Below the pieces are notes generated by a model that saw only the letters and a program-made list of their open reading frames with translations, did no database searches and was not told where the DNA came from. This document shows positions 11,269 through 48,729 of a stretch of DNA of 64,000 nt, one piece after another. The number at the start of each line of letters is the position of its first letter. Positions within the stretch are counted from its first letter, which is position 1. Origin of the DNA: a candidate division WOR-3 bacterium (GTDB lineage: Bacteria > Hydrothermota > Hydrothermia > LBFQ01); the NCBI GenBank assembly GCA_039802605.1, contig JBDRWW010000001.1, forward strand, positions 32,001-96,000, given 5' to 3'. The position numbers were made by a program, and so were the translations under genes.

Positions 11269-12184
11269 GGTTTCAAAGCTTTATGAGGGTTTCTTAAAAA
11301 AGTTTTGTAAGGTTTTGGCGGGGGAAAGGGGGTTTTGGAGGAGGATAAAAACACCGGATATTAGCCGCCCTGGTTTATTATTGGCGGGTTTTGAGGAGGA
11401 ATTCCCCGCAGAGAGGGTACAGATTATAGGATTAACGGAAAGGGCATACCTATTAAGCCTTGGTGAAAGGGGTGAAGATGCGATAAAAAGGTTGTACTCA
11501 AAGGAACCGCCAACGGTTATACTAACCTCCTTTGCTGAAAAGATAAACGAAAGACTAAAAAACCTTTTTTCTTACTATGCCGAAAAATTCTCAATACCTA
11601 CATTCTTTACGGAAGTCGGGACAACAAGGGTTATATCTTTAATTATGGATAAACTCCAATACGAACTCGCACCAACGATATACGAACATGGGGTAATGGT
11701 AGATGTTTTTGGTGTGGGTATATTGTTAAAGGGAAAATCCGCAATTGGTAAAAGCGAATGCGCCATTGAACTGATAAGGAGAGGACACAGGTTTATAGCG
11801 GATGACCTCGTGGCCATAAAGTTATACCCTGCCGATAATTTACTCGCAGAATCTCCAAGGGAAGAGATAAAATACTATATGGAAATTAAAGGGGTTGGCA
11901 TAATTCATATCCCTTCAATATACGGATTGCAAGCGGTTAAAGAAAAAACTTCCCTTGATTGCGTAATAGAGTTTATTCCCCAAGAAGAGTTTAAGTATAG
12001 CCCGGATACCGAGGTGGAAAGCGTTAATTATTTCGGTATAAGCGTTCCAAAATTCAAATTACCCATAACACCCGGGAAGAATATGGCAAGCATAGTTGAA
12101 ACGGTTGCATTGGTGTATAAAAAGGGCGATTTAGCCTATCAAGAGTTTAAGGAAAAGTTGAGGAAGTTGGTTGATAAAGGTTAG
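11249..12184 (+). CDS. hprK: HPr kinase/phosphorylase
   Basis: RPGLLLAG, HGVMVDVFGVGILL.GKSAIGKSE, ADD, MEIKGVGII, PGKN. Confidence 0.93.
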   Translation: METRFIEVSKLYEGFLKKFCKVLAGERGFWRRIKTPDISRPGLLLAGFEEEFPAERVQIIGLTERAYLLSLGERGEDAIKRLYSKEPPTVILTSFAEKINERLKNLFSYYAEKFSIPTFFTEVGTTRVISLIMDKLQYELAPTIYEHGVMVDVFGVGILLKGKSAIGKSECAIELIRRGHRFIADDLVAIKLYPADNLLAESPREEIKYYMEIKGVGIIHIPSIYGLQAVKEKTSLDCVIEFIPQEEFKYSPDTEVESVNYFGISVPKFKLPITPGKNMASIVETVALVYKKGDLAYQEFKEKLRKLVDKG

Positions 12185-13551
12185 GCGGAATATTTTTTAA
12201 TAATGTCATCCAATACTTTTAGGGCTTCCTCGCGGGTTTTTACAACCCCCTCAGCCCTCAACTCTTCTATTTCTTGAAGGATTTTCTTGTAAATCGGCCC
12301 AGGTTTTAGACCCCTTTCCATAAGGTCATACCCCGTGATCAAACGGGGTGGTTTGTTTGCCTCGGCTTCCTGCTGTTTAAGGAAATCCTCCAATTTTTTA
12401 GCCAATCGCAACTGACCGGCTACACCCTCGGCTCTAAGGGAGGTGGCCAACGCATCTACATAGGCCACAAGGATTATCGGGAACGCCCATTCGCCCGTTC
12501 TTTTATAATAACGGTATAATGCCCTTCTCGTCACATCTGGTGTTGCCAATAGGTGAGGGTGCATGTGCTCCGCAACTATTAAGGATATGGCTTTATAAAT
12601 CTCCTTAGGCATTCTCAACCTTTTACCAATTGAATTAACGATTTTTGAACCTATGTAATCGTGTCCGTGAAAGCTTATTTCACCATTTTCGTATTTGTAT
12701 GTCGCGGGTTTTCCCACATCGTGGAACATCGTCCCCATAACGATAATAAATCTACCCTTATCGTTTCTTATGGCCTCCATCCTGTGCAGGTAATAAACGA
12801 AGGGCCCATCTTCGAGGGTTTTCAGTGAAATTTCTAACCTTCTTAATGCCAAGAGTGTATGAGACCAAACATCCACATCCAAACCTTTTAAGGGCTTTTT
12901 TAACCCTTCAAGTTCGGGGAAAATTTTGAATAGAATTCCGCTTTCGGCCATAGAGGATACCTGCTTATAAAAGTTTTCTGAGGACAGTATTTTTGTTAGT
13001 TCGTAGGTTATCCTCTCGGGCGAAACCTTCGTTATGAGGTGGGAGCGGGAGGAAATCTCAAAAAATGTTCTACCCTCAATTTCAAAACCCAATTCTGCCG
13101 AGAACCTAAAAGCCCTAAGCATACGCAAAGGATCTTCTTCCAAGTTTTCCGGAAGTGTTATCCTTATTATTCCACTCTGTAAATCCTTTAAACCACCAAA
13201 GACATCTATAATTTCCCAACTATCCAAAGAAATTGCTATGGAGTTTATGGTAAAGTCCCTCTTATACAAATCGTCGTATATAGTTCCGGTTATAGGGGTA
13301 AGATCTATCTGTTCATCCTCCAAAACAACCCTAAAAATACCAAGCCCCTCGTCCAAAGGTATTAACACACCCTTTAAATCCATTGCTATGCTTTTCCCCG
13401 TTTCTTCCGGATTCCATACGGCTATATCCCAATCGGTTGGAACTTTACCCAACATTATATCCCTTATAGCCCCACCTACAAGGTAAGAACCTTTCGGCAA
13501 AAGTTTATACCAAGGTTTATACCTAATCAGGCTCTTAATTATTTCAACCAT
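12181..13551 (-). CDS. Class II tRNA nucleotidyltransferase with HD domain, probably CC-adding type
   Basis: YLVGGAIRD...DWD, KRDFTINS, EDPLRMLRAFRF, ERI, HDVGK. The segment before motif B is short. Confidence 0.88.
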   Translation of the reverse strand: MVEIIKSLIRYKPWYKLLPKGSYLVGGAIRDIMLGKVPTDWDIAVWNPEETGKSIAMDLKGVLIPLDEGLGIFRVVLEDEQIDLTPITGTIYDDLYKRDFTINSIAISLDSWEIIDVFGGLKDLQSGIIRITLPENLEEDPLRMLRAFRFSAELGFEIEGRTFFEISSRSHLITKVSPERITYELTKILSSENFYKQVSSMAESGILFKIFPELEGLKKPLKGLDVDVWSHTLLALRRLEISLKTLEDGPFVYYLHRMEAIRNDKGRFIIVMGTMFHDVGKPATYKYENGEISFHGHDYIGSKIVNSIGKRLRMPKEIYKAISLIVAEHMHPHLLATPDVTRRALYRYYKRTGEWAFPIILVAYVDALATSLRAEGVAGQLRLAKKLEDFLKQQEAEANKPPRLITGYDLMERGLKPGPIYKKILQEIEELRAEGVVKTREEALKVLDDIIKKYSA

Positions 13552-26729: not shown

Positions 26730-27911
26730 TCACAAACCCCCTTTCCTCTCAATGGCCTTGAATATCACATACTCCTGAATCTCGTTGGTTCCCTCAAAGA
26801 TCCTGTTTATCCTCGCATCCCTATACATTTTCTCAACGGGGTAATCCTCTATGTATCCGGCCCCACCGTGTATTTGAACGGCCAAATCAACCACCCTATC
26901 CAAGACCTCGGATGCAAAAACCTTTACTATCGAAGCCTCCCTAATAATATCATATCCCATATCCGCCATCCAAGCCACCCTATAAAGCAAACTTTCAAGG
27001 GTAAATATGTCTATTGCCATTCTCGCGAGGTAGTGTTGTATAAGTTGGAAGTTTTTTATGGGCTGCCCAAACTGTACCCTTTCGTTTGCAAATTTCCAAG
27101 CAACCTCAAACGCCTCCTTTGCACCCCCAAGGCAACCGGCTCCTAAGGTGATCCTACCTATGTCAAGGGTTTCCATCGCAATCTTAAAACCCTGCCCAAC
27201 CCCACCTAAAACATTTTCTTCCGGAACTTCAAGGTCTTCAAGTACAACATAGGCGGTTCCCGATGCCTTTATCCCCATCTTCTTTTCCGTTTTCATAACC
27301 TTCCAACCCTTCCATTTGGTTTCCACTATAAAGGCTGTTATGCCGCCATAAGCACCGAGAGATTTATCGTTTGCGGCAAATACAACGGCTATATCGGCGA
27401 TGTTCCCGTTTGAAACATAGAGTTTTGAACCGTTTAAAATCCACCTATCGCCCTTTTTAACCGCGGTCGTTTGTATATGTTGGGCATCGGAACCCGCATT
27501 CGGTTCCGTAAGGGCGAAGCACCCAATATATTCACCCGTGGCTATCTTTGTTAAATACTTTTCTTTCTGCTCTTTATTCCCGCCTATGTTTATAGCACCA
27601 CCGCACAAACCCGTTGATGCCCCAAGTAGCACCGCCACGGATGCATCACCCCTAGTTATCTCCTCTTGTAATACCGCATTTCCCAATTCGCCGAGGCCAG
27701 CGCCTCCATATTCTTCGGGTAAAAGGATACCAAAAAATCCCTGCTCCGCCATCTTTTTTATTAGCTCTTGGGGTATTTCTTCCCTTTTTTCCATCTCCCG
27801 CGATATGGGTTTTATTTCCCTATTCACAAACTCCCTAACCATTGCCCTAAGGTCTTCAAGGGTCTCAACCTTATCCTTGGGTAAGTTCAAAAATTCAAGG
27901 GCGCTTTTCAT
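26730..27911 (-). CDS. Acyl-CoA dehydrogenase
   Basis: FALTEPNAGSD, LNGSK, KMG, RVQFG, QIHGGAGY, IFEGTNEIQ. Start set to ATG 27911 from the -10 box position. Confidence 0.95.
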   Translation of the reverse strand: MKSALEFLNLPKDKVETLEDLRAMVREFVNREIKPISREMEKREEIPQELIKKMAEQGFFGILLPEEYGGAGLGELGNAVLQEEITRGDASVAVLLGASTGLCGGAINIGGNKEQKEKYLTKIATGEYIGCFALTEPNAGSDAQHIQTTAVKKGDRWILNGSKLYVSNGNIADIAVVFAANDKSLGAYGGITAFIVETKWKGWKVMKTEKKMGIKASGTAYVVLEDLEVPEENVLGGVGQGFKIAMETLDIGRITLGAGCLGGAKEAFEVAWKFANERVQFGQPIKNFQLIQHYLARMAIDIFTLESLLYRVAWMADMGYDIIREASIVKVFASEVLDRVVDLAVQIHGGAGYIEDYPVEKMYRDARINRIFEGTNEIQEYVIFKAIERKGGL

Positions 27912-27919
27912 AACCCTGT

Positions 27920-27972
27920 ATTCTACTCCCGTTTTGCTTATCAAAGTGTGGGAATTTTTTCACCTTTATAAT
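27920..27972. promoter_or_regulatory. Divergent -10 boxes: TAGAAT (-) 27920-27925 (8 nt) and TATAAT (+) 27967-27972 (9 nt before tRNA-Lys)
   Basis: Recurring motif and spacing. Confidence 0.7.
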
Positions 27973-27981
27973 ATCCACTTC

Positions 27982-28054
27982 GGGCCGTTAGCTCAGTTGG
28001 TAGAGCACCGGATTTTTAATCCGGGGGTCGCAGGTTCGATTCCTGCACGGCCCA
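27982..28054 (+). tRNA. tRNA-Lys (TTT), CCA not encoded
   Basis: Acceptor GGGCCGT/ACGGCCC, anticodon arm CCGGA-TTTTTAA-TCCGG, T-loop TTCGATT. Confidence 0.97.
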
Positions 28055-28057
28055 TTT

Positions 28058-29311
28058 TTGGCCAAAATTGTTGTTAAAGGCGGTAACGGGTTAAAGGGTT
28101 CCGTTAAAATAAGCGGTGCAAAAAATTCCGCCTTGGCATTAATACCCGTATCAATCCTGATCGATGGAAATGCGGAATTCGTAAATGTACCAAATGTCGA
28201 GGATGTCAGAACTATGCTTGAACTCTTAAGCGTTATGGGCTCTGAGGTTAGTTTTGATAAGGGTAATGTGTTTATCAATACATCCAACATCAAAGAGCCC
28301 TTTGCCCCTTATGAGTTTGTGAGCAAGATGAGGGCCTCTATATATGTTTTGGGCCCCCTTTTGGCAAGGTTTAAAAGGGCCAAGGTGGCTTTACCCGGGG
28401 GATGTGCCTTTGGCCCAAGACCTATAAACTTCCACTTGGAGGGTTTGAGGAAAATGGGGGCGGAAATAGAGATTGAACACGGGTATATAATAGCAAAGGC
28501 CAAAGAACTGAGAGGTGCGTATTTAACATTTGAAAAGAAATCAGTAGGGGCAACCATACACCTTATGACCACTGCGGTCTTTGCAAAAGGGGAAACGGTT
28601 ATAGATAACGCCGCAATAGAACCGGAAGTGGTGGATGTGGCCAAATTTTTAAAGAAATGTGGGGCAAATATTGAGGGGGAGGGGACCGATACCATTAGGG
28701 TTTATGGAGGGGGTTTCCTTAAAGGTGGTATAAAATACGGGGTAATACCCGATAGGATAGAGGCGGCAACCTTTATTATAGCATCCTTAATAACAAACGG
28801 GGAGGTTAGGGTTGAAGGCATAAGGCCAAAGGATATGGGAGCGGTAATATCAAAGCTTATGGAATGCGGGGGGCGTTTTGAAATCGGAGAGGATTATGTA
28901 TTGGTTAAACCTTCGGGAAGGTTGGAGGCCAAAGATGTTGAAACCGCCCCATTTCCCGGATTCCCAACGGATGTACAACCGCAATATATGGCCCTTATGA
29001 GTGTTTCTAATGGGAAATCCTTGATAAAGGAGGGTATATATCCCGATAGGTTTAAGCATGCCTTTGAACTTATAAGGTTGGGGGCTAATATAAAGGTTGG
29101 GGAAGGGTTTGCCATAGTTGAGGGGGTTGAATCCCTGAGTGGGGCACCGGTTGTGGGAAGCGATCTCAGGGCAACGGCATCTTTGGTTTTGGCCGGTCTT
29201 GTCGCAAAGGGTATAACGGAGGTGGATGGATACGAGCATATGCTAAGGGGTTATGAAAACTTTGAGGAGAAAATTAGAAATTTGGGGGCAGAATTGGAAG
29301 TCATTTTTTGA
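28058..29311 (+). CDS. murA: UDP-N-acetylglucosamine 1-carboxyvinyltransferase
   Basis: SGAKN, MRAS, LPGGCAFGPRP, PGFPTD, DLRA, RGYE. TTG start. Confidence 0.97.
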   Translation: MAKIVVKGGNGLKGSVKISGAKNSALALIPVSILIDGNAEFVNVPNVEDVRTMLELLSVMGSEVSFDKGNVFINTSNIKEPFAPYEFVSKMRASIYVLGPLLARFKRAKVALPGGCAFGPRPINFHLEGLRKMGAEIEIEHGYIIAKAKELRGAYLTFEKKSVGATIHLMTTAVFAKGETVIDNAAIEPEVVDVAKFLKKCGANIEGEGTDTIRVYGGGFLKGGIKYGVIPDRIEAATFIIASLITNGEVRVEGIRPKDMGAVISKLMECGGRFEIGEDYVLVKPSGRLEAKDVETAPFPGFPTDVQPQYMALMSVSNGKSLIKEGIYPDRFKHAFELIRLGANIKVGEGFAIVEGVESLSGAPVVGSDLRATASLVLAGLVAKGITEVDGYEHMLRGYENFEEKIRNLGAELEVIF

Positions 29312-29333
29312 ACAACCGTTCAAATAACAGCCT

Positions 29334-29339
29334 TAAAAT
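29334..29339 (+). promoter_or_regulatory. -10 box TAAAAT, 7 nt before ATG 29347
   Basis: Recurring motif and spacing. Confidence 0.7.
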
Positions 29340-29346
29340 TTCCGGT

Positions 29347-31590
29347 ATGATATACCTTTTGGCGTATTACATAAGTGGTTATATTTATGGGGAGGATGGG
29401 AAACCCCTAGAGGCGGCAACGGTTATTCTTAAAAGATTACCGGATAGTTCAAATGCGGGCGGAACATATTCCGAAAAAGATGGTTTTTTCAAGATAATAA
29501 ATGTTCAACCGGGAAGGTATGTCTTAATAATAAAATTCGTGGGGTACGAGGATTTTTCAAGGGTGGTTGAGGTTTCGGATAGGGACGTTGATTTGGGGAG
29601 GATAGTTTTAAAGGAAAAAGCCATAAGGGTTGAGGAAGTAGAGGTAAAGGCGGAAGCACCCAAGATAACATACGAAGAGGGGAAAAGGGTTATAAGGTTT
29701 ACCGATGAAATAGTATCAAAGGGCGGTAATGCCTTAGAGGCTTTAAAGAATGTACCGGGTATAACCGTGGATAACAATGACAACATAAAAATTAGAAATT
29801 CCGAAAACATCACGCTTTATATAAACGGTAGGCCTACAATCCTGAGCCCTTCCGAGGCTTTAAGACAAATACCCGCCTCATCCATAGAAAAAATTGAAAT
29901 TATAACAAACCCATCGGCCAAATACGAGGCCGAAGGAAATGTTATAATGAATATCGTCCTTAAACAGAGCCAAGATAGGGGATTCTCCGCATCCTTAATG
30001 GGTAGGTTGGGAACTTATGATAACCTCGGCTTGAACGCATCTACGGGTATAAATACGGGTAAAACAAAAATTGTCCTAAGCGCAAACTATTTCAGTTTCA
30101 AAAGGATTATGGAAAGTGAAATAAAAGCCGAGCATCCTATAGCTTATGAGAGCGATGGAGAAAGGTACTTTAATATGAAACCTACGGGTATAAGGGGAAG
30201 TGTTGAACACCGCCTAACCAATAACGATATAGCAAATATTGAGGTGGATTTTGGTAGATGGAACTTCCTAATGGGTTGGTTGATGAATTATCCTTCCTAT
30301 AAATCGGATATGGATGTTAATATGGGAGGATTTAGGGGTTCCCTTTCGGTGGGGTATGTTAAGAAATTCCTAAAAAACCACAAGGTTGAGGGTATGGTTT
30401 TTTACGCCAAAAGGATGGGAAAGGAAAATACCGAAAGCTATTTCGGCGATTCTTTGGGTTTCAAGAGGACATCCGATATCTCAGGCAATAGGTGGAGGTT
30501 TAAACTGGACTATTCTTGGGATATAGGAGATAAGAGGAGGTTTGAGATGGGTTATCAATGGGATATTAATGAAAACTCGGATTCCCTCGTTTTTTACGAT
30601 TATAAAAACGGAAGCTTTATATTGGATACAACGGGAAATTATAGTATGAATGATGTTATAAACGCGGGCTATTTTATGTATTCAAACGCTTTGGGTATAT
30701 TCTCATACCAGTTGGGTTTGAGGGTGGAGTACGACGACAGGGTGATAAACGACGGAAATAGGGAATATCCCTTTAAATCGACGGATTTGTTCCCCTCTTT
30801 AAGTCTATCCTTCAATCCGGATATAATGAACTCTTACAGCATTACATATTCCCGTAGGATTTCAAGGCCGATGGGTTGGATGTTGGTGCCATTCCCAAGG
30901 CAAATAGATAACCTAAACTATCAAAGGGGAAACCCGAACTTAAAACCGGAATATACCCATTCCTTTGAAGCGGGTTATCAGAGGATGTTTAGACTTGGAA
31001 ACATTCAAATTGAAGGCTTTTATAAGAGGAGCGAAAACAAAATGGATTTCTATCCGTATTACGACACCTCCTTGCGTTCCATAGTATATACTTGGGAAAA
31101 TACGGGCATAGCCACACTTTCCGGTGCGGAAATATTTGTATCCTTGCAGCCATTTAAGCTTTTAAAGTTGGATTTTACGGTTGATGTCTATGATTATAGG
31201 GTGTATTACAAAGGGTTTTCAAGGAGCTTGGCCTACGACTTAAAGGGTAACCTTAGCGTAGGTTATGGCCCTATGGGTTTGCAGATAAGCGGTAGGTACA
31301 ATTCCCCGAGGGTTAGCGCAAGGGGCAAGGTCTTGGGTAGTTATGCCTTTGATATGGGTTTAAGGTTGCCTATTACAAGGAATATTTTCTTTATCGCCCA
31401 GTTTGACGATTTTATGAAATTGGACAAAGAGGTTTCTGAAATCAAAGATGAAAATTTAAAGATGACAACCACAACTTTGCGGAAATGGCCTTCAATTTCG
31501 GTTATGTTATTCTTTGATTATAACAATTTCAGAAAAATGCAACAAAGGGAGAAGAGGGAGCCCTTAGAGGAAGAGGTACCCATGTTTTGA
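29347..31590 (+). CDS. TonB-dependent receptor-like outer-membrane protein with N-terminal carboxypeptidase-regulatory-like domain
   Basis: ISG...GKPLEAATV, LKNVPGI, IEKIEIITNPSAKYEAEG plug, GNPNLKPE. Start set to ATG 29347. Confidence 0.88.
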   Translation: MIYLLAYYISGYIYGEDGKPLEAATVILKRLPDSSNAGGTYSEKDGFFKIINVQPGRYVLIIKFVGYEDFSRVVEVSDRDVDLGRIVLKEKAIRVEEVEVKAEAPKITYEEGKRVIRFTDEIVSKGGNALEALKNVPGITVDNNDNIKIRNSENITLYINGRPTILSPSEALRQIPASSIEKIEIITNPSAKYEAEGNVIMNIVLKQSQDRGFSASLMGRLGTYDNLGLNASTGINTGKTKIVLSANYFSFKRIMESEIKAEHPIAYESDGERYFNMKPTGIRGSVEHRLTNNDIANIEVDFGRWNFLMGWLMNYPSYKSDMDVNMGGFRGSLSVGYVKKFLKNHKVEGMVFYAKRMGKENTESYFGDSLGFKRTSDISGNRWRFKLDYSWDIGDKRRFEMGYQWDINENSDSLVFYDYKNGSFILDTTGNYSMNDVINAGYFMYSNALGIFSYQLGLRVEYDDRVINDGNREYPFKSTDLFPSLSLSFNPDIMNSYSITYSRRISRPMGWMLVPFPRQIDNLNYQRGNPNLKPEYTHSFEAGYQRMFRLGNIQIEGFYKRSENKMDFYPYYDTSLRSIVYTWENTGIATLSGAEIFVSLQPFKLLKLDFTVDVYDYRVYYKGFSRSLAYDLKGNLSVGYGPMGLQISGRYNSPRVSARGKVLGSYAFDMGLRLPITRNIFFIAQFDDFMKLDKEVSEIKDENLKMTTTTLRKWPSISVMLFFDYNNFRKMQQREKREPLEEEVPMF

Positions 31591-31594
31591 AAAA

Positions 31595-32188
31595 TTAAAA
31601 ACCAATATCCTTTACCCCAACCATGTAGGTGTTCCCCTTACCATCGGCAAATATCCCGTCCCTTATCAAATAAGGACCGTATTTTTTGAGGAATTCATAA
31701 CCTTTAAGGGCATCCTTACCCTTCAATATATCCTTTCCAACCAATTCCCCAAAATCGCCTATTGGTGTTGCTATTCTCCTAACATAAACCCTTTCCCAGA
31801 ATAAAACGATAACCTTAGGTTTTACTTCCCTGCCACATTTCGCATCCTTTATTGCCAGGAAAACCTCCTTTATTTTTTCGGGAAAGTTGGGAGGACCATA
31901 AACCTTTACGGTTTTTTGGAAGTTCCCCTTTTTGTATATAAAGGTAAAGAAGGGTAAGTCCGTTCCTTGCACCGAGAAATATGTATCCTGCAAATCCTTC
32001 CAATATTCCGGTTCCAAAAACTTCCCAAGGATTTTTACCTCACAAAAGGAAAAATCTTCCGTATTGAGTTTCACGCCTTTCCCATTTATGAGTTTTAAAA
32101 GGATTATCCTTGAACCCCTAAACTCCTCATAAACATCAAGAGAAAAATCAACTTGGGGAAACATTAGGGCAAAAAACATACAATACAT
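31595..32188 (-). CDS. Hypothetical protein
   Basis: ORF coupled to the upstream glycosyltransferase, host-like codon use. Confidence 0.6.
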   Translation of the reverse strand: MYCMFFALMFPQVDFSLDVYEEFRGSRIILLKLINGKGVKLNTEDFSFCEVKILGKFLEPEYWKDLQDTYFSVQGTDLPFFTFIYKKGNFQKTVKVYGPPNFPEKIKEVFLAIKDAKCGREVKPKVIVLFWERVYVRRIATPIGDFGELVGKDILKGKDALKGYEFLKKYGPYLIRDGIFADGKGNTYMVGVKDIGF

Positions 32189-32189
32189 T

Positions 32190-33320
32190 CTAAGGGTGTT
32201 TTAAGACATCGTAATAAACCCTTTCAACCATGGCGGCAATGTTTTCCCAAGAGTAGTACTTTGCGGTTTCTAAACCGTTTTTTATTAACTTTTCCCTTAA
32301 ACCTTCATCCTTCAAAACCCCAAGCAATGCCTTCGCATAATCATCCCTATTCTTAACATCAACCAATACGCCGTTCTCCCCATCCCTTATAACATTAACA
32401 TAACCCTCGTTTTTGGCCGCAACTACCGGAACACCCGAAGCCATAGCCTCAATTAAAACCAAACCGAAGGTTTCACCACCTACCGCCGGAGAAGTATAAA
32501 CCGTTGCCCCCCTATAAACCTTTGGGAGGTCTTCAAAGGGTATTCTTCCCAAAAAATGAACCCTGTTTTTTAACCCTTCGGGAACCCTTTTCATTAAAAA
32601 ACCCCTTAGAGGCCCATCACCCGCAAATATCAAATGTACATTCCCTTTCTCAAAATCTCTTGCGTATAGGATAAAGGTTTCAAGCAATATATCCGGACCT
32701 TTCCTCGGCTCCAACCTACCCACAAACAAAACCGCTTTCCCATTAATCTTTGAATAGATTTCATGCTTTTCACCCTCCGGCCTAAACCTTTCGGTATCAA
32801 CCCCATTCGGTATTATCTCGTACCTGCCTTTGAAGAAGGGTTCCATTAAACCCTTTGCGGTTTCGGAAACTGCTATCGCAACCCTAATTTTTTTCCATAC
32901 GGGCATGAAGAAAAATCTTGCAACCTTATACCAGTTAAACCCAACAAAAGATGTATGGAATGTGCTAACTACGGGGTATGGTGAAAAAAGGGTTGCGGCG
33001 CAGGGGAGGTTGGGGGCCAAGGGTCCATGCGTATGAACAATATCAAAACGTGTTTCCTTTAAAAACCTCCGAACTTTGTAATGTAATAACGGGTCAAAAG
33101 TTAAGGTTATCTGGGATTTGTTCAGAGGTAAAAGGATTACCCTACCAATCCTATGAACATTCTCATTAAACTCCTCATCGCCCTTTCCGTATGAAGTGGT
33201 TAGTATATAAATCTCGTGCCCTCTTTTCCTGAGGTATTTTGAAAGGGAATATATGTGTTCGGAAACACCCCCCGGAAAGGGATAATATGCATCCGATACT
33301 TGAAGGATTTTTAATTTCAA
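32190..33320 (-). CDS. GT4 glycosyltransferase (PimA-like)
   Basis: PGGVSEH, IPNGVD, GRLEPRKG, ETFGLVLIEAMASG. Confidence 0.92.
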   Translation of the reverse strand: MKLKILQVSDAYYPFPGGVSEHIYSLSKYLRKRGHEIYILTTSYGKGDEEFNENVHRIGRVILLPLNKSQITLTFDPLLHYKVRRFLKETRFDIVHTHGPLAPNLPCAATLFSPYPVVSTFHTSFVGFNWYKVARFFFMPVWKKIRVAIAVSETAKGLMEPFFKGRYEIIPNGVDTERFRPEGEKHEIYSKINGKAVLFVGRLEPRKGPDILLETFILYARDFEKGNVHLIFAGDGPLRGFLMKRVPEGLKNRVHFLGRIPFEDLPKVYRGATVYTSPAVGGETFGLVLIEAMASGVPVVAAKNEGYVNVIRDGENGVLVDVKNRDDYAKALLGVLKDEGLREKLIKNGLETAKYYSWENIAAMVERVYYDVLKHP

Positions 33321-34165
33321 TAAAGGTTTTCGGCCAACCTTTTAAGTCTTTCTATACGCTTTTCTACGGGTGGATGCGTTGAAAAGAGTTCCATTAAGAA
33401 ACCACCGGAGAGAGGATTTACAATAAACATGTGGGACATAAACTCTGGAACCTCTGCTTCAACCGCCTGGGTACCATAAGCCAATTTTTCAAGGGCGGAT
33501 GCTAAGGCCAGAGGATCGTTTATAAACCTAGCACCCGTTTCATCCGCTATGTATTCCCTACTCCTTGATATCGCGAGCTTAATTAGCATAGCCGCTATGG
33601 GTAAGAGTATTATGGCGACCAAAAGGGCCAAAGGATTCCTGTCCCTATCCCTCCCACCAAAGAATATTAACCCCCACCTAAGCATATCGGCTATATAAAC
33701 TATTGCGGCAGCCAGCGTTGCCGCTACGGACATAATGAGTATATCCCGGTTTTTTATATGGGCAATTTCATGTGCTATAACACCTTTTAACTCCCTTCTA
33801 TTCAAAAGCCTCAATATCCCCTCCGTAAATACCACGGCGGCGTTCTTCGGATTCCTACCCGTTGCAAAGGCGTTTGGTTGTGGAATTGGAGCTATGTAAA
33901 TCTTGGGTTTGGGTATCCCGGCGGATACGGCAACCTCTTCAACCAGTGCGTGTAATTCCGGAGCCTCTTCCTCGCTAACCTCCCTAGCACCAACGGAAGC
34001 CGTGGCAATCTTGTCGGAGAAAAACCAAGCTATGAAATTCATCAAAGCGGCCATGAACAGGGCTATTATCATACCATAACTCCCGCCTATTAACTTGCCC
34101 GCATAAACCAACAATACACTTAAAATCGCCAAAAACAAGAATGTTTTTATCGTATTCCCCATCAT
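33317..34165 (-). CDS. htpX: Membrane zinc metalloprotease HtpX
   Basis: PNAFATGR, HEIAH, SRSREYIAD, FSTHPP. Confidence 0.95.
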   Translation of the reverse strand: MMGNTIKTFLFLAILSVLLVYAGKLIGGSYGMIIALFMAALMNFIAWFFSDKIATASVGAREVSEEEAPELHALVEEVAVSAGIPKPKIYIAPIPQPNAFATGRNPKNAAVVFTEGILRLLNRRELKGVIAHEIAHIKNRDILIMSVAATLAAAIVYIADMLRWGLIFFGGRDRDRNPLALLVAIILLPIAAMLIKLAISRSREYIADETGARFINDPLALASALEKLAYGTQAVEAEVPEFMSHMFIVNPLSGGFLMELFSTHPPVEKRIERLKRLAENLY

Positions 34166-34173
34166 AACCGTTA

Positions 34174-34193
34174 ATTTTAAACGGGATTAAAAT
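34174..34193. promoter_or_regulatory. Back-to-back -10 boxes TAAAAT (-) 34174-34179 (8 nt) and TAAAAT (+) 34188-34193 (7 nt)
   Basis: Both boxes fit inside a 35-bp divergent gap. Confidence 0.65.
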
Positions 34194-34200
34194 CTCCGGT

Positions 34201-35253
34201 ATGGGATTTTTGAGGGAGGATATAAGCTTCTCAACCCCTTTTACGGTTAGCCAAAAACCATATGTTGCAAAGTTGGACCAAAACGAATCCCCTTACGATA
34301 TACCCGAAGAAATAAAGGAGGTTTTACTTGAAGAGATAAAAAGGATGTCTTGGAATAGATACCCACAACCCGCAATTTACGAGGAGGTTAAAGAAAGTTT
34401 TGCCAAGGCCTTGGGAGTTAAACCGGAAAATATAGCCCTAACCTTTGGAGGAGATCAAACGATTCTAAGCGCTTTTTGGATAGCGGGGGGAAAGGGTAAA
34501 AGGTGCATAATATACGAACCCACATATCCTATGATAAGGCATTATGCGGCAGCGACATCAACCGACGCGGATATAAAGGTACTGGGAGAAGAGTTTTTTC
34601 CAAACCCTTCCGATTTTAAAGGCAAGGATTATAACATAATCTTCTTCGTTTCCCCAAACAACCCAACGGGGCATCTAATAAGTAAAGAAGTAATAAAGGA
34701 GGCTTTGGAAACGGGGGCATTGGTGTTTGTGGATGAGGCTTACTATCCGTTTTCCGGAATAACGGTTTGGGATGACTTAAAGGATTATCCGAATTTAATG
34801 GTGGGTAGATCCCTTTCAAAGTCCTTATTGGCCGGTATGAGGATGGGTTATGTTCTGGCTTCAAAAGAAATAATACGGGCGGTTGATTATATGAACTTTG
34901 CACCATACAACCTTACGATCTTTCAATTGGCGATTTTTAAAAGGTTCGGTGATATAATGGGATTTTTAAAGAAGGCCACGAATGAGGTTGTTGAGGAAAG
35001 GGAAAGGGTTTATAAAGCTTTGGAAGGACTCGGATTTAAACCCATAAAGTCTTACGGAAACTTCATAATGTTTAAGGTTAGAGACCACGAAAGGGCATAT
35101 AAGGTATTTGTAGAAGAAGGCATAAGGATAAGGGATGTTTCCGGCCTACCCGGGTTGTCAAACCACCTGAGGGTTACAATTGGCTTAAATGACGAGAACG
35201 ATAAGTTTATAGAAGTTTTAAAGAAATTAGTCCCGCACCTGCTCCCAGAATAA
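34201..35253 (+). CDS. Histidinol-phosphate aminotransferase-like PLP enzyme (HisC/CobD family)
   Basis: LDQNESPY, NRYP, SPNNPTG, DEAY, RSLSK...GMRMGY, LRVTIG. Confidence 0.85.
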   Translation: MGFLREDISFSTPFTVSQKPYVAKLDQNESPYDIPEEIKEVLLEEIKRMSWNRYPQPAIYEEVKESFAKALGVKPENIALTFGGDQTILSAFWIAGGKGKRCIIYEPTYPMIRHYAAATSTDADIKVLGEEFFPNPSDFKGKDYNIIFFVSPNNPTGHLISKEVIKEALETGALVFVDEAYYPFSGITVWDDLKDYPNLMVGRSLSKSLLAGMRMGYVLASKEIIRAVDYMNFAPYNLTIFQLAIFKRFGDIMGFLKKATNEVVEERERVYKALEGLGFKPIKSYGNFIMFKVRDHERAYKVFVEEGIRIRDVSGLPGLSNHLRVTIGLNDENDKFIEVLKKLVPHLLPE

Positions 35254-35884
35254 AGCATAAAAACAAATCCCCAAAACCCCACCTGAGTTTGAGCAAAAAC
35301 GAGAATATTTTCTCCCTTAAAGGGTAAAATACCCAGAAAATTACCAAGGCCATCAACAATTCGGGAAACGTTTTAACAAAAACCAATATCCATAAATGGC
35401 CGGTTATTATGTGCCAAATGGTTTTCTTCTCTTCATATTCATACGAAAAGAGAAAATAAAAGGCCATAAGCATAAGGTGGAAAATTACGGGTAAGGGGTT
35501 AAAGGCGTAATAAAATAGAAGGATGCTAACGGTGATTGGTACTATAAATTCAAACCAAGGATTGCCTTGGAAATGCCTTAAAGAGAGATGCTCTAACGCC
35601 CTTTCGGGCTCCTTTACGGGTATTATAGGAAGGAGTATTAAAGATAGCGAAAAAAATCCGGGTATGTCAAAGTTCCCATTGTAAAATGCCGTTTTGATAT
35701 TCTCAATTAAGACAAAAAGAAGGAGAACGAAGAGATAGGCGAACAATTTCCCCCGCGATAACATCAACAAAACCATCCATAAACCCAATAAAAACACAAA
35801 AAAGCCGTAAAAGGGATATAAACCCTCCCCTAAAAATATTTTCTCCAAGCAAAGGACGATAGCACCAAATAATACCCAAATCAA
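35207..35884 (-). CDS. Hypothetical polytopic membrane protein
   Basis: Many hydrophobic segments. TTG start 1 nt after the SDR stop. Confidence 0.6.
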   Translation of the reverse strand: MIWVLFGAIVLCLEKIFLGEGLYPFYGFFVFLLGLWMVLLMLSRGKLFAYLFVLLLFVLIENIKTAFYNGNFDIPGFFSLSLILLPIIPVKEPERALEHLSLRHFQGNPWFEFIVPITVSILLFYYAFNPLPVIFHLMLMAFYFLFSYEYEEKKTIWHIITGHLWILVFVKTFPELLMALVIFWVFYPLREKIFSFLLKLRWGFGDLFLCFILGAGAGLISLKLL

Positions 35885-35885
35885 A

Positions 35886-36629
35886 TCATTCCTTGGGTTT
35901 TACCCCCACCGACCAACCACCATCTATTGGTATGGCGGCACCGTTCATCCAAGCGGATTCATCGCTTGCGAGATAAACGGCCAAAAATGCCACATCTTCG
36001 GGCCATCCTCCCCTATATGGGAGTTTATCCGTCCTCAAAGTTTCAAAATCCGAAAACAGTTCATGCGAAACACCATCAGGGCATATTACATTTGCCCTTA
36101 TGTTGTATTTTGCGTAATCCCTTGCAACGGTTTTAACAAAAGCGACTATTGCCGCCTTTGTGGCGTTGTATATTGACGAACCCGATGCAACCCCAAAATT
36201 ACCATATACCGCGGCCGTGTGAATATACACACCCCCACCCCACTCCTTAAACAGGGGCAATGTTTCCCTAACGACAAATACATGGGATAGGAAATTACCA
36301 TCCCAAAGCATTTTTATGGTTTCCTCATCAACCTCCTCCACATTTGTAGGTGTCCAATAACCCGCATTTACAAAGACTACATCTATTTTTCCAAGTTTTT
36401 TAACGGCATCCGAAACAAAACCCTTTACCTCGTTCAATTTTGAGGCATCCGCCCTATAAGAATAAACCTCATAACCCTTACCCTTCAAAAACTCCGCAAT
36501 TTCATGGCACTTTTCAGACCTTGAAACTAGGAATAACTTCGCCCCTTCCTTTGCCATTGCGTAAGCCGACGCCCTACCTATACCGCTACCAACACCGACT
36601 ATAATTATCTTCTTATCTTTTAACCTCAT
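35886..36629 (-). CDS. Short-chain dehydrogenase/reductase
   Basis: GVGSGIG, NAG, YNATK. Confidence 0.92.
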   Translation of the reverse strand: MRLKDKKIIIVGVGSGIGRASAYAMAKEGAKLFLVSRSEKCHEIAEFLKGKGYEVYSYRADASKLNEVKGFVSDAVKKLGKIDVVFVNAGYWTPTNVEEVDEETIKMLWDGNFLSHVFVVRETLPLFKEWGGGVYIHTAAVYGNFGVASGSSIYNATKAAIVAFVKTVARDYAKYNIRANVICPDGVSHELFSDFETLRTDKLPYRGGWPEDVAFLAVYLASDESAWMNGAAIPIDGGWSVGVKPKE

Positions 36630-36635
36630 TCCGAA

Positions 36636-36672
36636 ATTCTACGGTTGTTAGTATTATTATCAACCATACAAT
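36636..36672. promoter_or_regulatory. Divergent -10 boxes: TAGAAT (-) 36636-36641 (6 nt) and TACAAT (+) 36667-36672 (8 nt before mdh ATG 36681)
   Basis: Recurring motif and spacing. Confidence 0.7.
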
Positions 36673-36680
36673 TCCGTGTT

Positions 36681-37613
36681 ATGAAGAAAGTTGCGATAAT
36701 AGGAGCCGGAAATGTTGGAAGCGAAGCCGCAAGATATTTGGCATACAAAGGCATAGCCCATATAGTCCTTTTGGATATAGTTGAGGGTATAGCAAAGGGA
36801 AAGTCGCTTGATCTATTGCACGCGGGGCCAATAGAGTGCGCAACGGTATCCATTGAGGGAACCTCCGATTATGGTCCCATTGAAAACAGCGATGTGGTTA
36901 TTATAACGGCAGGAAAGCCCAGAAAACCGGGTATGTCGAGGGAGGAACTTTTAAAGGTAAATTTTGATATTGTCAGCGGTATAGCGGAAAAGGTTAAGGA
37001 GTATGCCCCCAATTCCGTAGTTATCGTGGTATCAAACCCGCTTGATGCAATGGTATATACCACATATAAGATTACGGGTTTTCCGAGGGAAAGGGTTATG
37101 GGCATGGCAGGCTTGCTGGATTCAGCCAGGTTTGCGGCATTTATAGCCCAAGAAGTTGGAGTTTCACCGGCGGATGTTAGGGCTATGGTTATGGGAACCC
37201 ATGGGGATTTAATGGTTCCTCTTACTAGATTCACCACAATAAACGGTATTCCCGCCACTGAGTTTTTATCGGAGGATAAATTGAAGGAAATCGTTGAAAA
37301 GACGAGGTTTGCCGGTGGAGAAATAGTTAAACTTATGGGTACTAGCGCGTGGTTTGCCCCAGGAGATGCCGCCGCCTTTATGGCGGAAGCCGTATTACTC
37401 GATACCAACAGGGTTTTATCCGCATCCGTGTACTTGACCGGTGAATACGGTATAAACGGGGTATTTGTGGGTGTCCCTGTGGTTTTGGGGTGGGGAGGAG
37501 TTAAGAGGATATTGGAGGTTAAACTTACGGAAGAAGAGATGGAGGCTTTGAAGAAGAGCGCGGACCACATAAAGGAACTACAAGAACAGGTTGATGAGCT
37601 CTTGAAGGGATGA
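36681..37613 (+). CDS. mdh: Malate dehydrogenase (LDH-like)
   Basis: GAGNVG, TAGKPRKPGMSR, SNPLD, LDSARF, HGD. Start set to ATG 36681. Confidence 0.95.
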   Translation: MKKVAIIGAGNVGSEAARYLAYKGIAHIVLLDIVEGIAKGKSLDLLHAGPIECATVSIEGTSDYGPIENSDVVIITAGKPRKPGMSREELLKVNFDIVSGIAEKVKEYAPNSVVIVVSNPLDAMVYTTYKITGFPRERVMGMAGLLDSARFAAFIAQEVGVSPADVRAMVMGTHGDLMVPLTRFTTINGIPATEFLSEDKLKEIVEKTRFAGGEIVKLMGTSAWFAPGDAAAFMAEAVLLDTNRVLSASVYLTGEYGINGVFVGVPVVLGWGGVKRILEVKLTEEEMEALKKSADHIKELQEQVDELLKG

Positions 37614-38191
37614 GAAAAGCCTTAATATTTTTTGCCTTTTTAATTTCATGCGGTAAGGGTATAAACTATTCCCAAAGTTTTCCTTATGACAAGGGTTATG
37701 TTTTGTTTGACCAAAACGGGAAAGAGAGGAAGTTGGACGAATTCAAAGGGAAGGTATTGGTGGTTGGATACATATACACGCATTGTCCGGATATATGCCC
37801 ACTTATCACGGATAACATGAGGAAGATATACAAAGAGGTTTCCAAAAACGGTTGGTCTAATAAGGTTGTTTTCCTGAGTATATCCTTTGATCCGAGGAGG
37901 GATAAACCCGAAGTTTTAAATAATTATGCAAAGATATACGGCTTGGATACCGTTAAGAACTGGTTTTTCCTTACGGGGAATCCAAAAACCATAGATTCCT
38001 TAATGAAAGACCTTTCAATAGTGGTGGAGATTGGCCCTATGGAAGTTTCTGAAAGTGGGGATACAATATATTTCATTGTGCATACGGATAGGATACACAT
38101 AGTGGATAAGAGGGGAAAAATTGTTAGTTATTTTAAGGGGAGCGAAGCAAATGTTGATGATGTTATAAAGGCAATAAGGAGGGCAATATGA
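37610..38191 (+). CDS. SCO1/SenC copper chaperone lipoprotein
   Basis: Lipobox LISC, CPDIC, DPRRD, conserved His (VHT). Confidence 0.92.
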   Translation: MRKALIFFAFLISCGKGINYSQSFPYDKGYVLFDQNGKERKLDEFKGKVLVVGYIYTHCPDICPLITDNMRKIYKEVSKNGWSNKVVFLSISFDPRRDKPEVLNNYAKIYGLDTVKNWFFLTGNPKTIDSLMKDLSIVVEIGPMEVSESGDTIYFIVHTDRIHIVDKRGKIVSYFKGSEANVDDVIKAIRRAI

Positions 38192-38559
38192 TTTGGATGC
38201 TTGCGTTTATTGACATAGCGGATATTTGGGCGAGGCCGGGTATTAAGGGGGGAAACTCGGCCGTTTATATGGTCATAAGGAACAACGATACGCTTCCGGA
38301 TACGCTGTATAAAGCTTCATCGGACATAGCGGCAATGGTGGAAATACACAAGACATATAAGGACAAGAAGGGGAAAATGGGTATGGAAAGGGTTGATTAT
38401 GTGGTTATACCTCCAAAGGGAGAATTTAAACTTGAACCCGGGGGGTACCATATTATGCTTATGAAGTTGAAGAAAAACCTGCGAGGGGGTAAAAAGTTTA
38501 ACCTTTCGCTTTATTTCAAGAGGGCCGGGAAAATAGATATAACGGCTGAGGTGAAATAG
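38188..38559 (+). CDS. Copper chaperone PCu(A)C
   Basis: WAR...SAVYM, EIH...MGM, LEPGGYHIMLM. Coupled to the SCO gene. Confidence 0.92.
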   Translation: MIWMLAFIDIADIWARPGIKGGNSAVYMVIRNNDTLPDTLYKASSDIAAMVEIHKTYKDKKGKMGMERVDYVVIPPKGEFKLEPGGYHIMLMKLKKNLRGGKKFNLSLYFKRAGKIDITAEVK

Positions 38560-38583
38560 GGGGAGATAAAAATCCGTCAAGCG

Positions 38584-38589
38584 TATAAT
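38584..38589 (+). promoter_or_regulatory. -10 box TATAAT, 10 nt before tRNA-Ser
   Basis: Recurring motif. Confidence 0.7.
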
Positions 38590-38599
38590 ATATTCTTGT

Positions 38600-38685
38600 G
38601 GAGGGTTGCGCCGAATTGGTAAGGCAGCGGATTTGAAATCCGCCGGGGCTTAGGCCCCTTGGGGGTTCGAGTCCCCCACCCTCCG
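38600..38685 (+). tRNA. tRNA-Ser (TGA), long variable arm, CCA not encoded
   Basis: Acceptor GGAGGGT/ACCCTCC with G discriminator, GCGGA-TTTGAAA-TCCGC, variable arm GGGGC/GCCCC, TTCGAGT. Confidence 0.95.
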
Positions 38686-38691
38686 CTTTAT

Positions 38692-39060
38692 ATGATTTTT
38701 GATTACGGTTCGGAAGGCGGTGGGATTGTAGTTCTGGGTTCTTCGGAAATTGTAAATCAAATAGCCCTAAACATCTCCACGTTTTCCGCACTAATGGTTG
38801 AAAATGTAGATTTACCGGAAAACTACGGGGATTTTGTCAATATGTTAAAAGAAAAATCCCCAAAGTTTGTAATAGGGGATGAAAGCGCTTACGAATACCT
38901 TTTAAGGTATTCACAAGAGGGTGGAATTCCGGCCATCTTTAAACCTCTAAGTGTGGAATACGACCTTGCAAGCGGTGGTTTATTGGTAAAATGCAGGGTT
39001 GGTGAAAGGTTTGCGGCAACTCTATCCGTAAATGGGGATAGAATCGTCATTGCCGTATAA
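38692..39060 (+). CDS. Hypothetical protein
   Basis: First ATG outside the tRNA (the ORF-track start lies inside the tRNA). Host-like codon use. Confidence 0.6.
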   Translation: MIFDYGSEGGGIVVLGSSEIVNQIALNISTFSALMVENVDLPENYGDFVNMLKEKSPKFVIGDESAYEYLLRYSQEGGIPAIFKPLSVEYDLASGGLLVKCRVGERFAATLSVNGDRIVIAV

Positions 39061-42318: not shown

Positions 42319-42327
42319 AAGGCCGAT

Positions 42328-42361
42328 ATTTTACCCTTGAAAGGGTTTTCAGCGGTAAAAT
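42328..42361. promoter_or_regulatory. Divergent -10 boxes TAAAAT (-) 42328-42333 and TAAAAT (+) 42356-42361, each 9 nt before ATG
   Basis: Recurring motif and spacing. Confidence 0.7.
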
Positions 42362-42370
42362 ACCCAACTT

Positions 42371-44061: not shown

Positions 44062-44240
44062 GGGGCATTATTATCCACATCATCATAATTTCCCTTATCC
44101 TCCTCTTAAGCGCCGTTATGAACTCTTACACTATTACCATTTTGAGTAAAAAAATGGCGGTAAAAAGGGATGAGCTCAGGAAAACCTCTTGGGTTGAGGA
44201 TAGCATTAGATTTTTGAGGTTTTCAAAACCTTATGAGTAG
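44058..44240 (+). CDS. Small single-TM protein, possibly FtsL-like
   Basis: ATGA-coupled immediately after rsmH, where ftsL usually lies. One TM helix plus a short helical tail. Confidence 0.45.
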   Translation: MRGIIIHIIIISLILLLSAVMNSYTITILSKKMAVKRDELRKTSWVEDSIRFLRFSKPYE

Positions 44241-46230: not shown

Positions 46231-46238
46231 AAGCGTGT

Positions 46239-47604: not shown

Positions 47605-47644
47605 ATTATACCGTTGAAAACGATAAACCCTTCACCCTTATAAT
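47605..47644. promoter_or_regulatory. Divergent -10 boxes TATAAT (-) 47605-47610 (9 nt) and TATAAT (+) 47639-47644 (10 nt before tRNA-Tyr)
   Basis: Recurring motif and spacing. Confidence 0.7.
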
Positions 47645-47654: not shown

Positions 47655-47738
47655 GGTGGGGTTCCCGAGCGGCCAAAGGGGCCAGGCTGTAAACCTGGTG
47701 GCGTAACGCCTTCGGGGGTTCAAATCCCTCCCCCACCA
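47655..47738 (+). tRNA. tRNA-Tyr (GTA), CCA not encoded
   Basis: Acceptor GGTGGGG/CCCCACC with A discriminator, CCAGG-CTGTAAA-CCTGG, variable arm, TTCAAAT. Confidence 0.97.
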
Positions 47739-47742
47739 CTTT

Positions 47743-48729
47743 TTGGACGAGGTTTTAATTACGGGTGTTGGTGGGTTTATAGGTTCCTTTTTGGCAAAAG
47801 CGCTCCTCAAAAGGGGATACAAGGTAGTGGGCATTGATAACTTTGACCCATATTATCCCAAGGATTACAAACTTTTAAGGCTTGAAATGTTGAAGGGTTT
47901 TACAAACTTTGAGTTTTACGATGTGGATTTCACCGAATACGAAAGCCTTAGAAAGGTGTTTGAAAATAGGAACTTTTCGGGAGTTTTACATATAGGCGCA
48001 AAGGCCGGGGTTAGGGCGAGCATACAAAACCCCGAGGGGTATATAAAGGTGAATACCTTGGGAACATTGAACATATTAAAGGTTATGTTAGAATTCGGAA
48101 TAAGAAAAATCCTTATGGCATCAACATCTTCCATATACGCCGGGCATAACCCCCCATTTGTTGAAAGCATGAAAACGGATACACCCATATCACCCTATGC
48201 GGTAAGCAAGAAGGCCGCAGAAAATTTATTATATACATACCATCACCTTTACGGTATAGATGCTCTTGTTTTGAGGTATTTTACCGTTTATGGACCGGCT
48301 GGGAGGCCTGATATGAGTATTTTTAAGATATTTTACTCGGCTTTTTCGGGTAGCGAATTCCCCCTTTATGGGGATGGTAGTCAAAGGAGGTCCTTTACGT
48401 TCGTAGAGGATGTTGTTGATGGAACCATAAAGGCGTATGAGACGATAAAGGGTTTTGAAGTTATAAACATAGGAAACCCCACGGACGAGGCCTTATTTAA
48501 TGTTATAAACCATGTGGAAAATCTTGTGGGGAATAAGGTGAAAATTCGGTTTTTGGAGTTTAATAGGGCGGATGTTATGGAAACAAAGGCGGATATTACA
48601 AAGGCGAGAAAGCTGTTGAATTGGGAACCAAAAACGGATATTTATACGGGTTTGGAAATAACTTACCATTGGTTTAGGGAAAATTGGGATAGGATTAAAG
48701 AAATTTTTCCGGAAATGCCGAGAATATGA
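47743..48729 (+). CDS. NAD-dependent nucleotide-sugar epimerase (UDP-glucuronate 4-epimerase-like)
   Basis: TGVGGFIG, AGVR.S, YAVSK, RYFTVYGP.GRPDM. TTG start. Confidence 0.92.
   Translation: MDEVLITGVGGFIGSFLAKALLKRGYKVVGIDNFDPYYPKDYKLLRLEMLKGFTNFEFYDVDFTEYESLRKVFENRNFSGVLHIGAKAGVRASIQNPEGYIKVNTLGTLNILKVMLEFGIRKILMASTSSIYAGHNPPFVESMKTDTPISPYAVSKKAAENLLYTYHHLYGIDALVLRYFTVYGPAGRPDMSIFKIFYSAFSGSEFPLYGDGSQRRSFTFVEDVVDGTIKAYETIKGFEVINIGNPTDEALFNVINHVENLVGNKVKIRFLEFNRADVMETKADITKARKLLNWEPKTDIYTGLEITYHWFRENWDRIKEIFPEMPRI

Follow-up and report, generated by a model that had tools for sequence, protein, structure and literature searches.

tRNA genes abutting start codons in a Candidatus Caldipriscus-like bacterium: a possible link between tRNA maturation and mRNA 5'-end formation

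In the DNA considered here, a 64,000-nucleotide stretch (the window; positions 32001-96000 of contig C1) from the 1.65-Mb, 23-contig assembly of a Candidatus Caldipriscus-like bacterium of candidate division WOR-3 (genome code G000), a tRNA-Lys gene runs almost directly into murA, whose start codon lies 3 nucleotides (nt) past the discriminator base of the tRNA. How does a gene placed in this way obtain its messenger RNA, and where does that message begin? The features of the junction, in window coordinates, are these:

27967..27972, plus strand: -10 box TATAAT of the tRNA-Lys/murA unit, read from the sequence, 9 nt before the tRNA +1 and invariant in four genomes
27973..27981, plus strand: ATCCACTTC, the stretch from -10 box to tRNA, where, to judge by the spacing, transcription would start and give the tRNA a 5' leader just a few bases long
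27982..28054, plus strand: tRNA-Lys(UUU), CCA not encoded, discriminator A28054 (ARAGORN; Rfam RF00005, 79.2 bits)
28055..28057, plus strand: TTT spacer between discriminator and start codon, read from the sequence
28058..29311, plus strand: murA (UDP-N-acetylglucosamine 1-carboxyvinyltransferase), TTG start at 28058-28060, 417 amino acids (aa), supported by its open reading frame (ORF), TIGR01072 and Protein Data Bank (PDB) chains

The murA ORF is full length by several comparisons. It scored 520.2 bits against TIGR01072 (cut-off 392.7), with protein residues 1-414 on positions 1-415 of the 416-position profile, and 527.4 bits against NF006873 (cut-off 297); PDB MurA chains matched it at an E-value of 7.7e-119. 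Residues 1-6 (MAKIVV) align with MAKIVV at positions 9-14 of 6wfm_A, and residues 2-415 align on 2-415 of chains including 1ejc_A and 1uae_A, while the next in-frame start, codon 27, falls within the conserved N-terminal region. A consensus scan of 27850-28250 returned no terminator-like site and no two-hexamer promoter-like site, and the junction is too tight for a Shine-Dalgarno site. The original prediction, which read the junction as A28054, TTT and then a murA TTG at 28058 that fits the family N-terminus, with no terminator, Shine-Dalgarno sequence or separate -10 box in between, is thus upheld by ARAGORN, Rfam, the profile and structure alignments, the scan, and the survey of upstream boxes described below.

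The layout is general in this genome, as emerged from the genome-wide measurement of tRNA-to-start distances that the original prediction had called for. tRNA genes were called with ARAGORN, the three in the window being cross-checked and their 3' ends fixed with Rfam; the discriminator of each tRNA was assigned from the 7-bp acceptor stem and U8, and a start was counted as flush when an ORF of 50 aa or more had its first start codon 0-12 nt past it. The set comprises 46 tRNA genes serving all 20 amino acids, plus one tmRNA. A flush start follows 35 of the 46, and for 29 of these it lies within 0-5 nt. The identical measure at 20000 random positions of the genome gave 2607 flush starts (13.0%; binomial p 3e-22), or 16.3% where the next bases were TT or CTT. 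Among the 11 tRNAs that are not flush, four are internal members of an Ile-Pro-Pro-Pro-Val cluster, the last tRNA of which again abuts a gene, and tRNA-Gln(CUG) precedes tuf with an AGGAGG and a 19-nt gap.

RNase Z prefers a U after the discriminator, according to work in B. subtilis. The tRNAs of this genome share both this trait and the lack of an encoded CCA with RNase Z substrates: CCA is encoded by none of the 46 genes, and TT or CTT follows the discriminator in 44 of them (dinucleotides TT 28, CT 16, CA 1, CC 1, with 28 T and 18 C at position 74).

The downstream proteins (n = 36, the 35 flush ORFs and EF-Tu) were profile-scanned against NCBIfam at E <= 1e-5; 28 had a match and eight had none. 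By our reading of the NCBIfam table, about 15 of the 35 flush proteins place residues 1-5 on positions 1-5 of full-length models: L28, MurA, a GalE-like epimerase, QueD, PurB, Asd, PRPP synthase, a 2-hydroxyacid dehydrogenase, an Rrf2 regulator, FadD, L33, AhcY, a patatin-like protein, PdxT and a CopA metal-binding domain. The N-termini of NuoA, NuoH, CcmE and a Gfo/Idh/MocA oxidoreductase agree with their models to within a few residues. Judged by these alignments, the flush start codons are real.

We then considered what could drive the flush genes. The sequence TA[TA]AAT, usually inside CCTTATAATA, stands 8-16 nt before 41 of the 46 tRNAs, and four of the five exceptions are internal cluster members. 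The motif [CT]TTA[TA]AATA occurs 498 times in the genome: 36 matches precede tRNAs; 211 stand no more than 20 nt ahead of a start codon that opens an ORF of 60 aa or longer, and these distances peak sharply at 6-10 nt (16, 29, 49, 33 and 23 matches in turn); and in the others a start follows at 21-60 nt (62), beyond 60 nt (87) or not at all (102). Counted from the ORF side, the motif lies 5-11 nt upstream of 273 starts (ATG 196, TTG 46, GTG 31), the set examined being 2890 ORFs of 80 aa or longer from six frames, among them spurious ones. The genome at large thus displays the arrangement typical of leaderless genes, a -10 box at a fixed short distance before the start and no Shine-Dalgarno sequence, and from this spacing it appears to make leaderless or near-leaderless mRNAs routinely and to give its tRNAs 5' leaders of only a few bases. 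At the flush junctions, a TANNNT 4-12 nt before the start, the position expected of a primary leaderless promoter, was found in 0 of 35, and the flush genes would therefore depend on the promoter of the tRNA. With neither promoter nor terminator between the two, tRNA and gene would be cotranscribed; and because leaderless mRNAs are apparently used on a large scale here, an mRNA freed at the 3' end of a tRNA would resemble the ordinary mRNAs of this organism.

The gene for RNase P RNA (contig C11, 7865-8270; L001) also has a promoter box, 9 nt upstream. The flush rule was tried on it and fails, as it is followed about 30 nt downstream by a separate leaderless-type promoter and about 46 nt downstream by a GTG.

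The flush starts differ from the primary leaderless-type starts in their choice of codon. They comprise 23 TTG, 12 ATG and no GTG, such that TTG accounts for 23/35 (66%), compared with 46/273 (17%) of the primary leaderless-type starts (Fisher p 4.5e-9), and the 5'-terminal AUG or GUG characteristic of leaderless messages is replaced by TTG at these 23 positions. The spacers include TTG directly at the discriminator (one case), a single c or t before TTG (12), two bases before TTG (four), and cttATG or tttATG (four); ATG is never found less than 3 nt from the tRNA. The simplest reading is that two constraints act together: (C)UU is needed past the tRNA and the start is forced to the new 5' end, which would favor UUG because it is the sole start codon that begins with UU.

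Relatives of this MurA include those of an uncultured bacterium (94% identity; L017) and of a metagenome-assembled genome labelled Candidatus Caldipriscus sp. (77%; L018), a genus placed in the candidate phylum Caldipriscota, that is, WOR-3 (PMC12285271), and abundant in streamer metatranscriptomes from Yellowstone (PMC11696919). A tRNA-Lys(UUU) directly precedes murA in both, as it does in a genome of another genus in the same family (G005; L160). Across the four aligned genomes neither the -10 box nor the tRNA nor the TTG varies, and the spacer is TTT, TTC, absent or CT (0-3 nt); it is L018 in which the TTG adjoins the discriminator. Five genomes were surveyed for their tRNAs, using the 30 best-scoring loci out of 43-47 matches; with duplicates and tRNAs near locus ends dropped, 28-35 tRNAs remained per genome, and random rates were computed per bin within each genome.

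G005, same family: 28 tRNAs; start at 0-5 nt in 9 (random 7%)
G013, same order, other family: 33 tRNAs; 0-5 nt in 13 (random 3%)
G020, same class: 35 tRNAs; 0-5 nt in 1, 6-12 nt in 5
G019, same class: 31 tRNAs; 0-5 nt in 0, 6-20 nt in 17 (random about 3% per bin)
G024, same class: 32 tRNAs; 0-5 nt in 0, 6-12 nt in 13 (random 12%)

tRNA-led genes look common in the class, and the flush extreme is, in these samples, a trait of the order to which Caldipriscus belongs. Besides Lys-murA, the pairs Gly-rpmB, Trp-rpmG, Cys-Rrf2, Lys(CUU)-OmpA-like, Asp-oxidoreductase and Thr-pdxT recur between G000 and G005, as matched by tRNA identity, ORF length and first codons alone. The survey also yielded two observations on the tRNA genes themselves. 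One locus of G020 (L138) carries an ARAGORN tRNA with anticodon TTA ('Stop'), which may be an artefact of the program or a tRNA of suppressor type. An encoded CCA seems to be present in about 10 of the 32 tRNAs sampled from G024 (L248-L277), with a run of T after it and an ATG 7-13 nt further along; the discriminators there may be one base off.

Any explanation must accommodate what is observed: the anatomy of the junctions, their statistics, their conservation, the absence of another promoter and the gene content. We consider it reasonably probable that tRNA and gene are cotranscribed and that an endonuclease other than a recognisable RNase Z then cuts the transcript to give a near-leaderless mRNA. 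In each unit a -10 box would be followed by a very short leader (a few bases), then by the tRNA, (C)UU and finally the start codon of an ordinary gene, with most tRNA genes serving as the first module of such a unit. A single transcript would begin at the tRNA promoter, and RNase P, the genes for which are present (RNase P RNA, 211.6 bits; rnpA, 55.5 bits), would trim its 5' side. The endonuclease would cut at or beside the discriminator, after which nucleotidyltransferases would add CCA to the tRNA, a step that is needed because no tRNA gene encodes it. The downstream RNA, with its 5' end 0-5 nt before the start codon, would be translated by the leaderless route apparently used for hundreds of promoter-proximal genes. 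Two PolyA_pol-type nucleotidyltransferases of the CCA-adding type are present in the genome, one of them in the window:

12181..13551, minus strand: CCA-adding-type tRNA nucleotidyltransferase, 456 aa, with an HD domain (TIGR02692, 162.8 bits, below cut-off; PolyA_pol above cut-off)

Several results weigh against this explanation, and the main difficulty is the poor performance of UUG as a leaderless start. At the leaderless position TTG and CTG are ineffective in mycobacteria (PMC4633059), and UUG makes up 3% of leaderless starts in Propionibacterium acnes (PMC3848588); both sources agree with a caveat in the original prediction, that UUG is usually a weak leaderless start. UUG nonetheless heads murA, asd, prs, purB, ahcY, nuoA and nuoH in this genome. 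The model further asks us to infer a shared transcript, a cut, the position of the cut, a 5' phosphate and translation from UUG. The RNA reads speak neither for it nor against it: two metatranscriptome runs gave 0 reads each on 27850-47849 of the window, and a third, of which about 5 in 100 was sampled, gave 7 reads on the same interval, none at a junction. A set of RNA contigs yielded three short pieces, whose matches were confined to tRNA-Lys and the few bases just ahead of it; each had 2 mismatches and ran on into unlike sequence, and they probably come from other organisms.

Nor does the gene content point to an enzyme for the cut. The original prediction had assigned the cut to RNase Z and proposed checking for its gene, but the RNase Z model TIGR02651, which matched 14 of 14 control genomes, had no match in G000 at E <= 0.001, and none of the 41 genomes of the class had one above the family cut-off. 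In addition, RNase E/G was not found in G000, and RNase J was represented only by a 19-bit partial match on a beta-CASP protein; this genome is rated 90% complete, so that a gene not found there is not proof of absence. RNase Y (635 bits), PNPase and two RNB-family exonucleases are present, and with PNPase and the RNB-family enzymes tRNA 3' ends could arise by trimming. Four metallo-beta-lactamase-fold proteins were found in G000, namely a UPF0173 hydrolase, a 434-aa beta-CASP nuclease (contig C8, 20125-21429) and two lactonase- or lactamase-like proteins. The beta-CASP nuclease was considered as the cutter and rejected: it was found in 26 of the 41 class genomes, but it does not track the layout, as family f2 has the layout yet the nuclease in 0 of its 7 genomes, and G020 has the nuclease yet not the layout. 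The UPF0173 hydrolase (NF001911) occurs in 41 of 41 genomes and is thus uninformative, a lead only. No nuclease candidate for the cut has support.

RNase Z-like proteins of 70-130 bits do occur in two other families of the class, f3 and f8, and when these were used as tblastn queries against G000, only weak matches to other metallo-beta-lactamase genes were returned. Families f3 and f8 have spacers of 6-20 nt, and such proteins were not found in f1 and f2, with spacers of 0-5 nt; four families make this a lead and not a correlation.

Other explanations share parts of this evidence. It is unlikely, in our estimate, that the cotranscript escapes a precise cut, in which case ribosomes would translate an mRNA that still carries the tRNA (or would translate just a minority) and the tRNA would mature later, once RNase Y and 3'-to-5' exonucleases had degraded the message as far as the tRNA body, before CCA is added. 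Such a course would suit a genome in which RNases Z, E/G and J were not found while RNase Y, PNPase and two RNB-family exonucleases were. CCA-less tRNA genes without an obvious tRNase Z are also known from P. acnes (PMC3848588). Yet a folded tRNA 0-3 nt from a start that lacks a Shine-Dalgarno sequence should block the mRNA path of the ribosome, the spacing matches the one seen at primary leaderless genes, for which a free 5' end is required, and the presence of L28 and L33 in this layout argues for efficient expression. We regard as quite unlikely the view that the layout is a by-product of compaction without selected coupling, in which tRNAs sit at the strong promoters of leaderless genes and a U run stops most transcripts, leaving low read-through. 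The tiny intergenic regions, the back-to-back promoters within about 70 nt upstream of tRNA-Lys, the mixed functions of the downstream genes and the long T runs (TTTTTTATTTT-like) after tRNAs without a downstream gene are all in keeping with it. Read-through RNA would still need a cut for translation, however, and by-product status does not sit easily with (i) tRNA-gene pairs that are apparently kept between genera (Lys-murA, Gly-rpmB, Trp-rpmG, Cys-Rrf2, Asp-oxidoreductase), (ii) a TTG that is invariant while the spacer changes, and (iii) an enrichment far above chance in three genomes.

A promoter hidden in the 3' half of the tRNA, which would make tRNA and mRNA separate transcripts, deserved consideration since leaderless genes here need just a -10 box about 8 nt upstream. 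No support for it was found: TANNNT is absent 4-12 nt upstream at all 35 junctions, on which ground we rejected an internal promoter, and the last 20 nt of each tRNA are GC-rich T-arm and acceptor strand, leaving this reading very improbable. Hardly credible, finally, is the idea that the start codons are mis-set, with true starts further downstream and ORFs open to the tRNA by chance. A TTG arises easily where a G ends a T run, and eight of the 36 proteins have no family against which to check the N-terminus; but about 15 proteins fit family models from their first residues, and for murA the alternative start at codon 27 would fall in a conserved region behind a TTG that is unchanged in four genomes. 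For the proteins with family models, the NCBIfam and PDB alignments led us to reject mis-set starts.

The other two tRNAs of the window were also said in the original prediction to share the layout, and they do (three of three, with spacers of 6 nt for tRNA-Ser and 4 nt for tRNA-Tyr).

38584..38589, plus strand: -10 box TATAAT of the tRNA-Ser unit, 10 nt before the tRNA
38600..38685, plus strand: tRNA-Ser(UGA), discriminator G38685, then CTTTAT (ARAGORN, Rfam)
38692..39060, plus strand: 122-aa ORF, ATG 6 nt past the discriminator, no NCBIfam family at E <= 1e-5
47639..47644, plus strand: -10 box TATAAT of the tRNA-Tyr unit, 10 nt before the tRNA
47655..47738, plus strand: tRNA-Tyr(GUA), discriminator A47738, then CTTT (ARAGORN, Rfam)
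47743..48729, plus strand: ORF of the NAD-dependent epimerase/dehydratase family, 328 aa, TTG 4 nt past the discriminator (GalE model, protein 4-314 on profile 2-328 of 332, below the model cut-off)

On the minus strand beside the tRNA-Lys/murA unit, the divergent acyl-CoA dehydrogenase gene looks leaderless as well (TAGAAT at 27925-27920, 8 nt, then ATG at 27911-27909), and its promoter and that of tRNA-Lys stand back to back within about 70 nt. Downstream, a 760-aa ORF (29308..31590) can be read from a TTG (29308-29310) into which the murA stop codon, TGA (29309-29311), extends, and murA seems to head an operon. Elsewhere in the genome, two ORFs that follow leucine tRNAs are unusual. The 160-aa ORF flush with tRNA-Leu(CAG) (contig C5, 46697-47179; L112) aligns with the LysA model at the two termini alone, with residues 9-53 on profile positions 24-69 and residues 80-158 on positions 315-410 of 417, and from this resembles a diaminopimelate decarboxylase that has lost its central part. 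The 1134-aa ORF that begins 10 nt past tRNA-Leu(UAG) (contig C2, 41485-44889; L101) resembles PglX-type adenine methyltransferases of BREX systems (136.8 bits, below cut-off), and appears to be a defence-type gene driven from a tRNA promoter.

The closest parallel to the proposed cut lies in mitochondria. Ojala, Montoya and Attardi reportedly described, in 1981, the punctuation of animal mitochondrial transcripts by tRNAs (see also PMC3790967). There, as in G000, where 35 of 46 tRNAs have a start within 0-12 nt, tRNA genes abut protein genes directly; and tRNA excision sets an mRNA end with almost no 5' leader and no Shine-Dalgarno sequence, a likeness to the messages proposed here. Unlike mitochondria, G000 is a free-living organism with a 1.65-Mb genome, 41 of its 46 tRNAs have a -10 box of their own and stand only at the 5' ends of units, and tRNAs do not flank the genes of one long polycistron. 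Nor was an RNase Z/ELAC2 homologue found in G000, and UUG is the commonest start after its tRNAs.

Bacterial tRNA-mRNA operons with a shared promoter are known from thrU-tyrU-glyT-thrT-tufB of E. coli. The tRNA-Gln(CUG)-tuf unit of G000, with its AGGAGG and 19-nt gap, is of this classical kind, whereas the other 35 units are nearly free of spacers and have no ribosome-binding site, so that their mRNA must serve as a leaderless message. In plant mitochondria, t-elements are tRNA-shaped structures that mark the cut making an mRNA end; the elements in G000, by contrast, are the organism's own single-copy functional tRNAs, which jointly serve all 20 amino acids. An endonucleolytic cut just 5' of the start codon also turns longer transcripts into leaderless ones when MazF acts in E. 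coli (Vesper et al. 2011, cited in PMC3848588). MazF differs in being active during stress, in cutting at ACA and in leaving the RNA with a 5' hydroxyl, whereas the cut in G000 would be made constitutively, at a place set by tRNA structure, as one step in maturing the tRNA. Bacteria rich in primary leaderless messages, such as mycobacteria (PMC4633059), P. acnes (PMC3848588) and Streptomyces (PMC4681348), share with G000 the -10 box at a fixed short distance and the lack of a Shine-Dalgarno sequence, and P. acnes shares the CCA-less tRNAs without an obvious tRNase Z as well. Their leaderless 5' ends are AUG or GUG, with UUG at 3% or inactive, and the available parts of these papers describe no tRNA-abutting starts, unlike G000, in which TTG stands at 17% of primary-type and 66% of tRNA-adjacent starts. 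In the literature as available to us, supplements aside, we found no account of tRNA genes placed directly against start codons, either for WOR-3 or for another free-living bacterium.

A stronger proposal follows the same lines, and we offer it tentatively, the balance of likelihood being somewhat against it: that an order of WOR-3/Caldipriscota uses single-copy tRNAs as general mRNA 5' modules, that an endonuclease other than RNase Z cuts at the discriminator or C74 and frees 5'-monophosphate mRNAs beginning with zero to three U and then UUG, and that ribosomes start there efficiently enough for MurA, Asd, PRPP synthase and complex I subunits. If true, this would mean a new tRNA 3' endonuclease and a UUG-tolerant pathway of leaderless initiation in a free-living bacterium.

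tRNA punctuation is taught as a mitochondrial peculiarity, and the same logic is apparently used for about 35 genes of a free-living, deep-branching hyperthermophile, a hot-spring bacterium with three quarters of its tRNA genes in the flush layout and with the essential genes murA, asd, prs, purB, ahcY, nuoA, nuoH, rpmB and rpmG among those that follow them. Should the proposed cut be real, annotation would have to change, as gene callers that expect ribosome-binding sites or bar tRNA-adjacent starts would mis-set these start codons; the search for a nuclease that replaces RNase Z would be opened; UUG would have a natural test as a leaderless start; and tRNA maturation would be coupled to mRNA 5'-end formation in bacteria.

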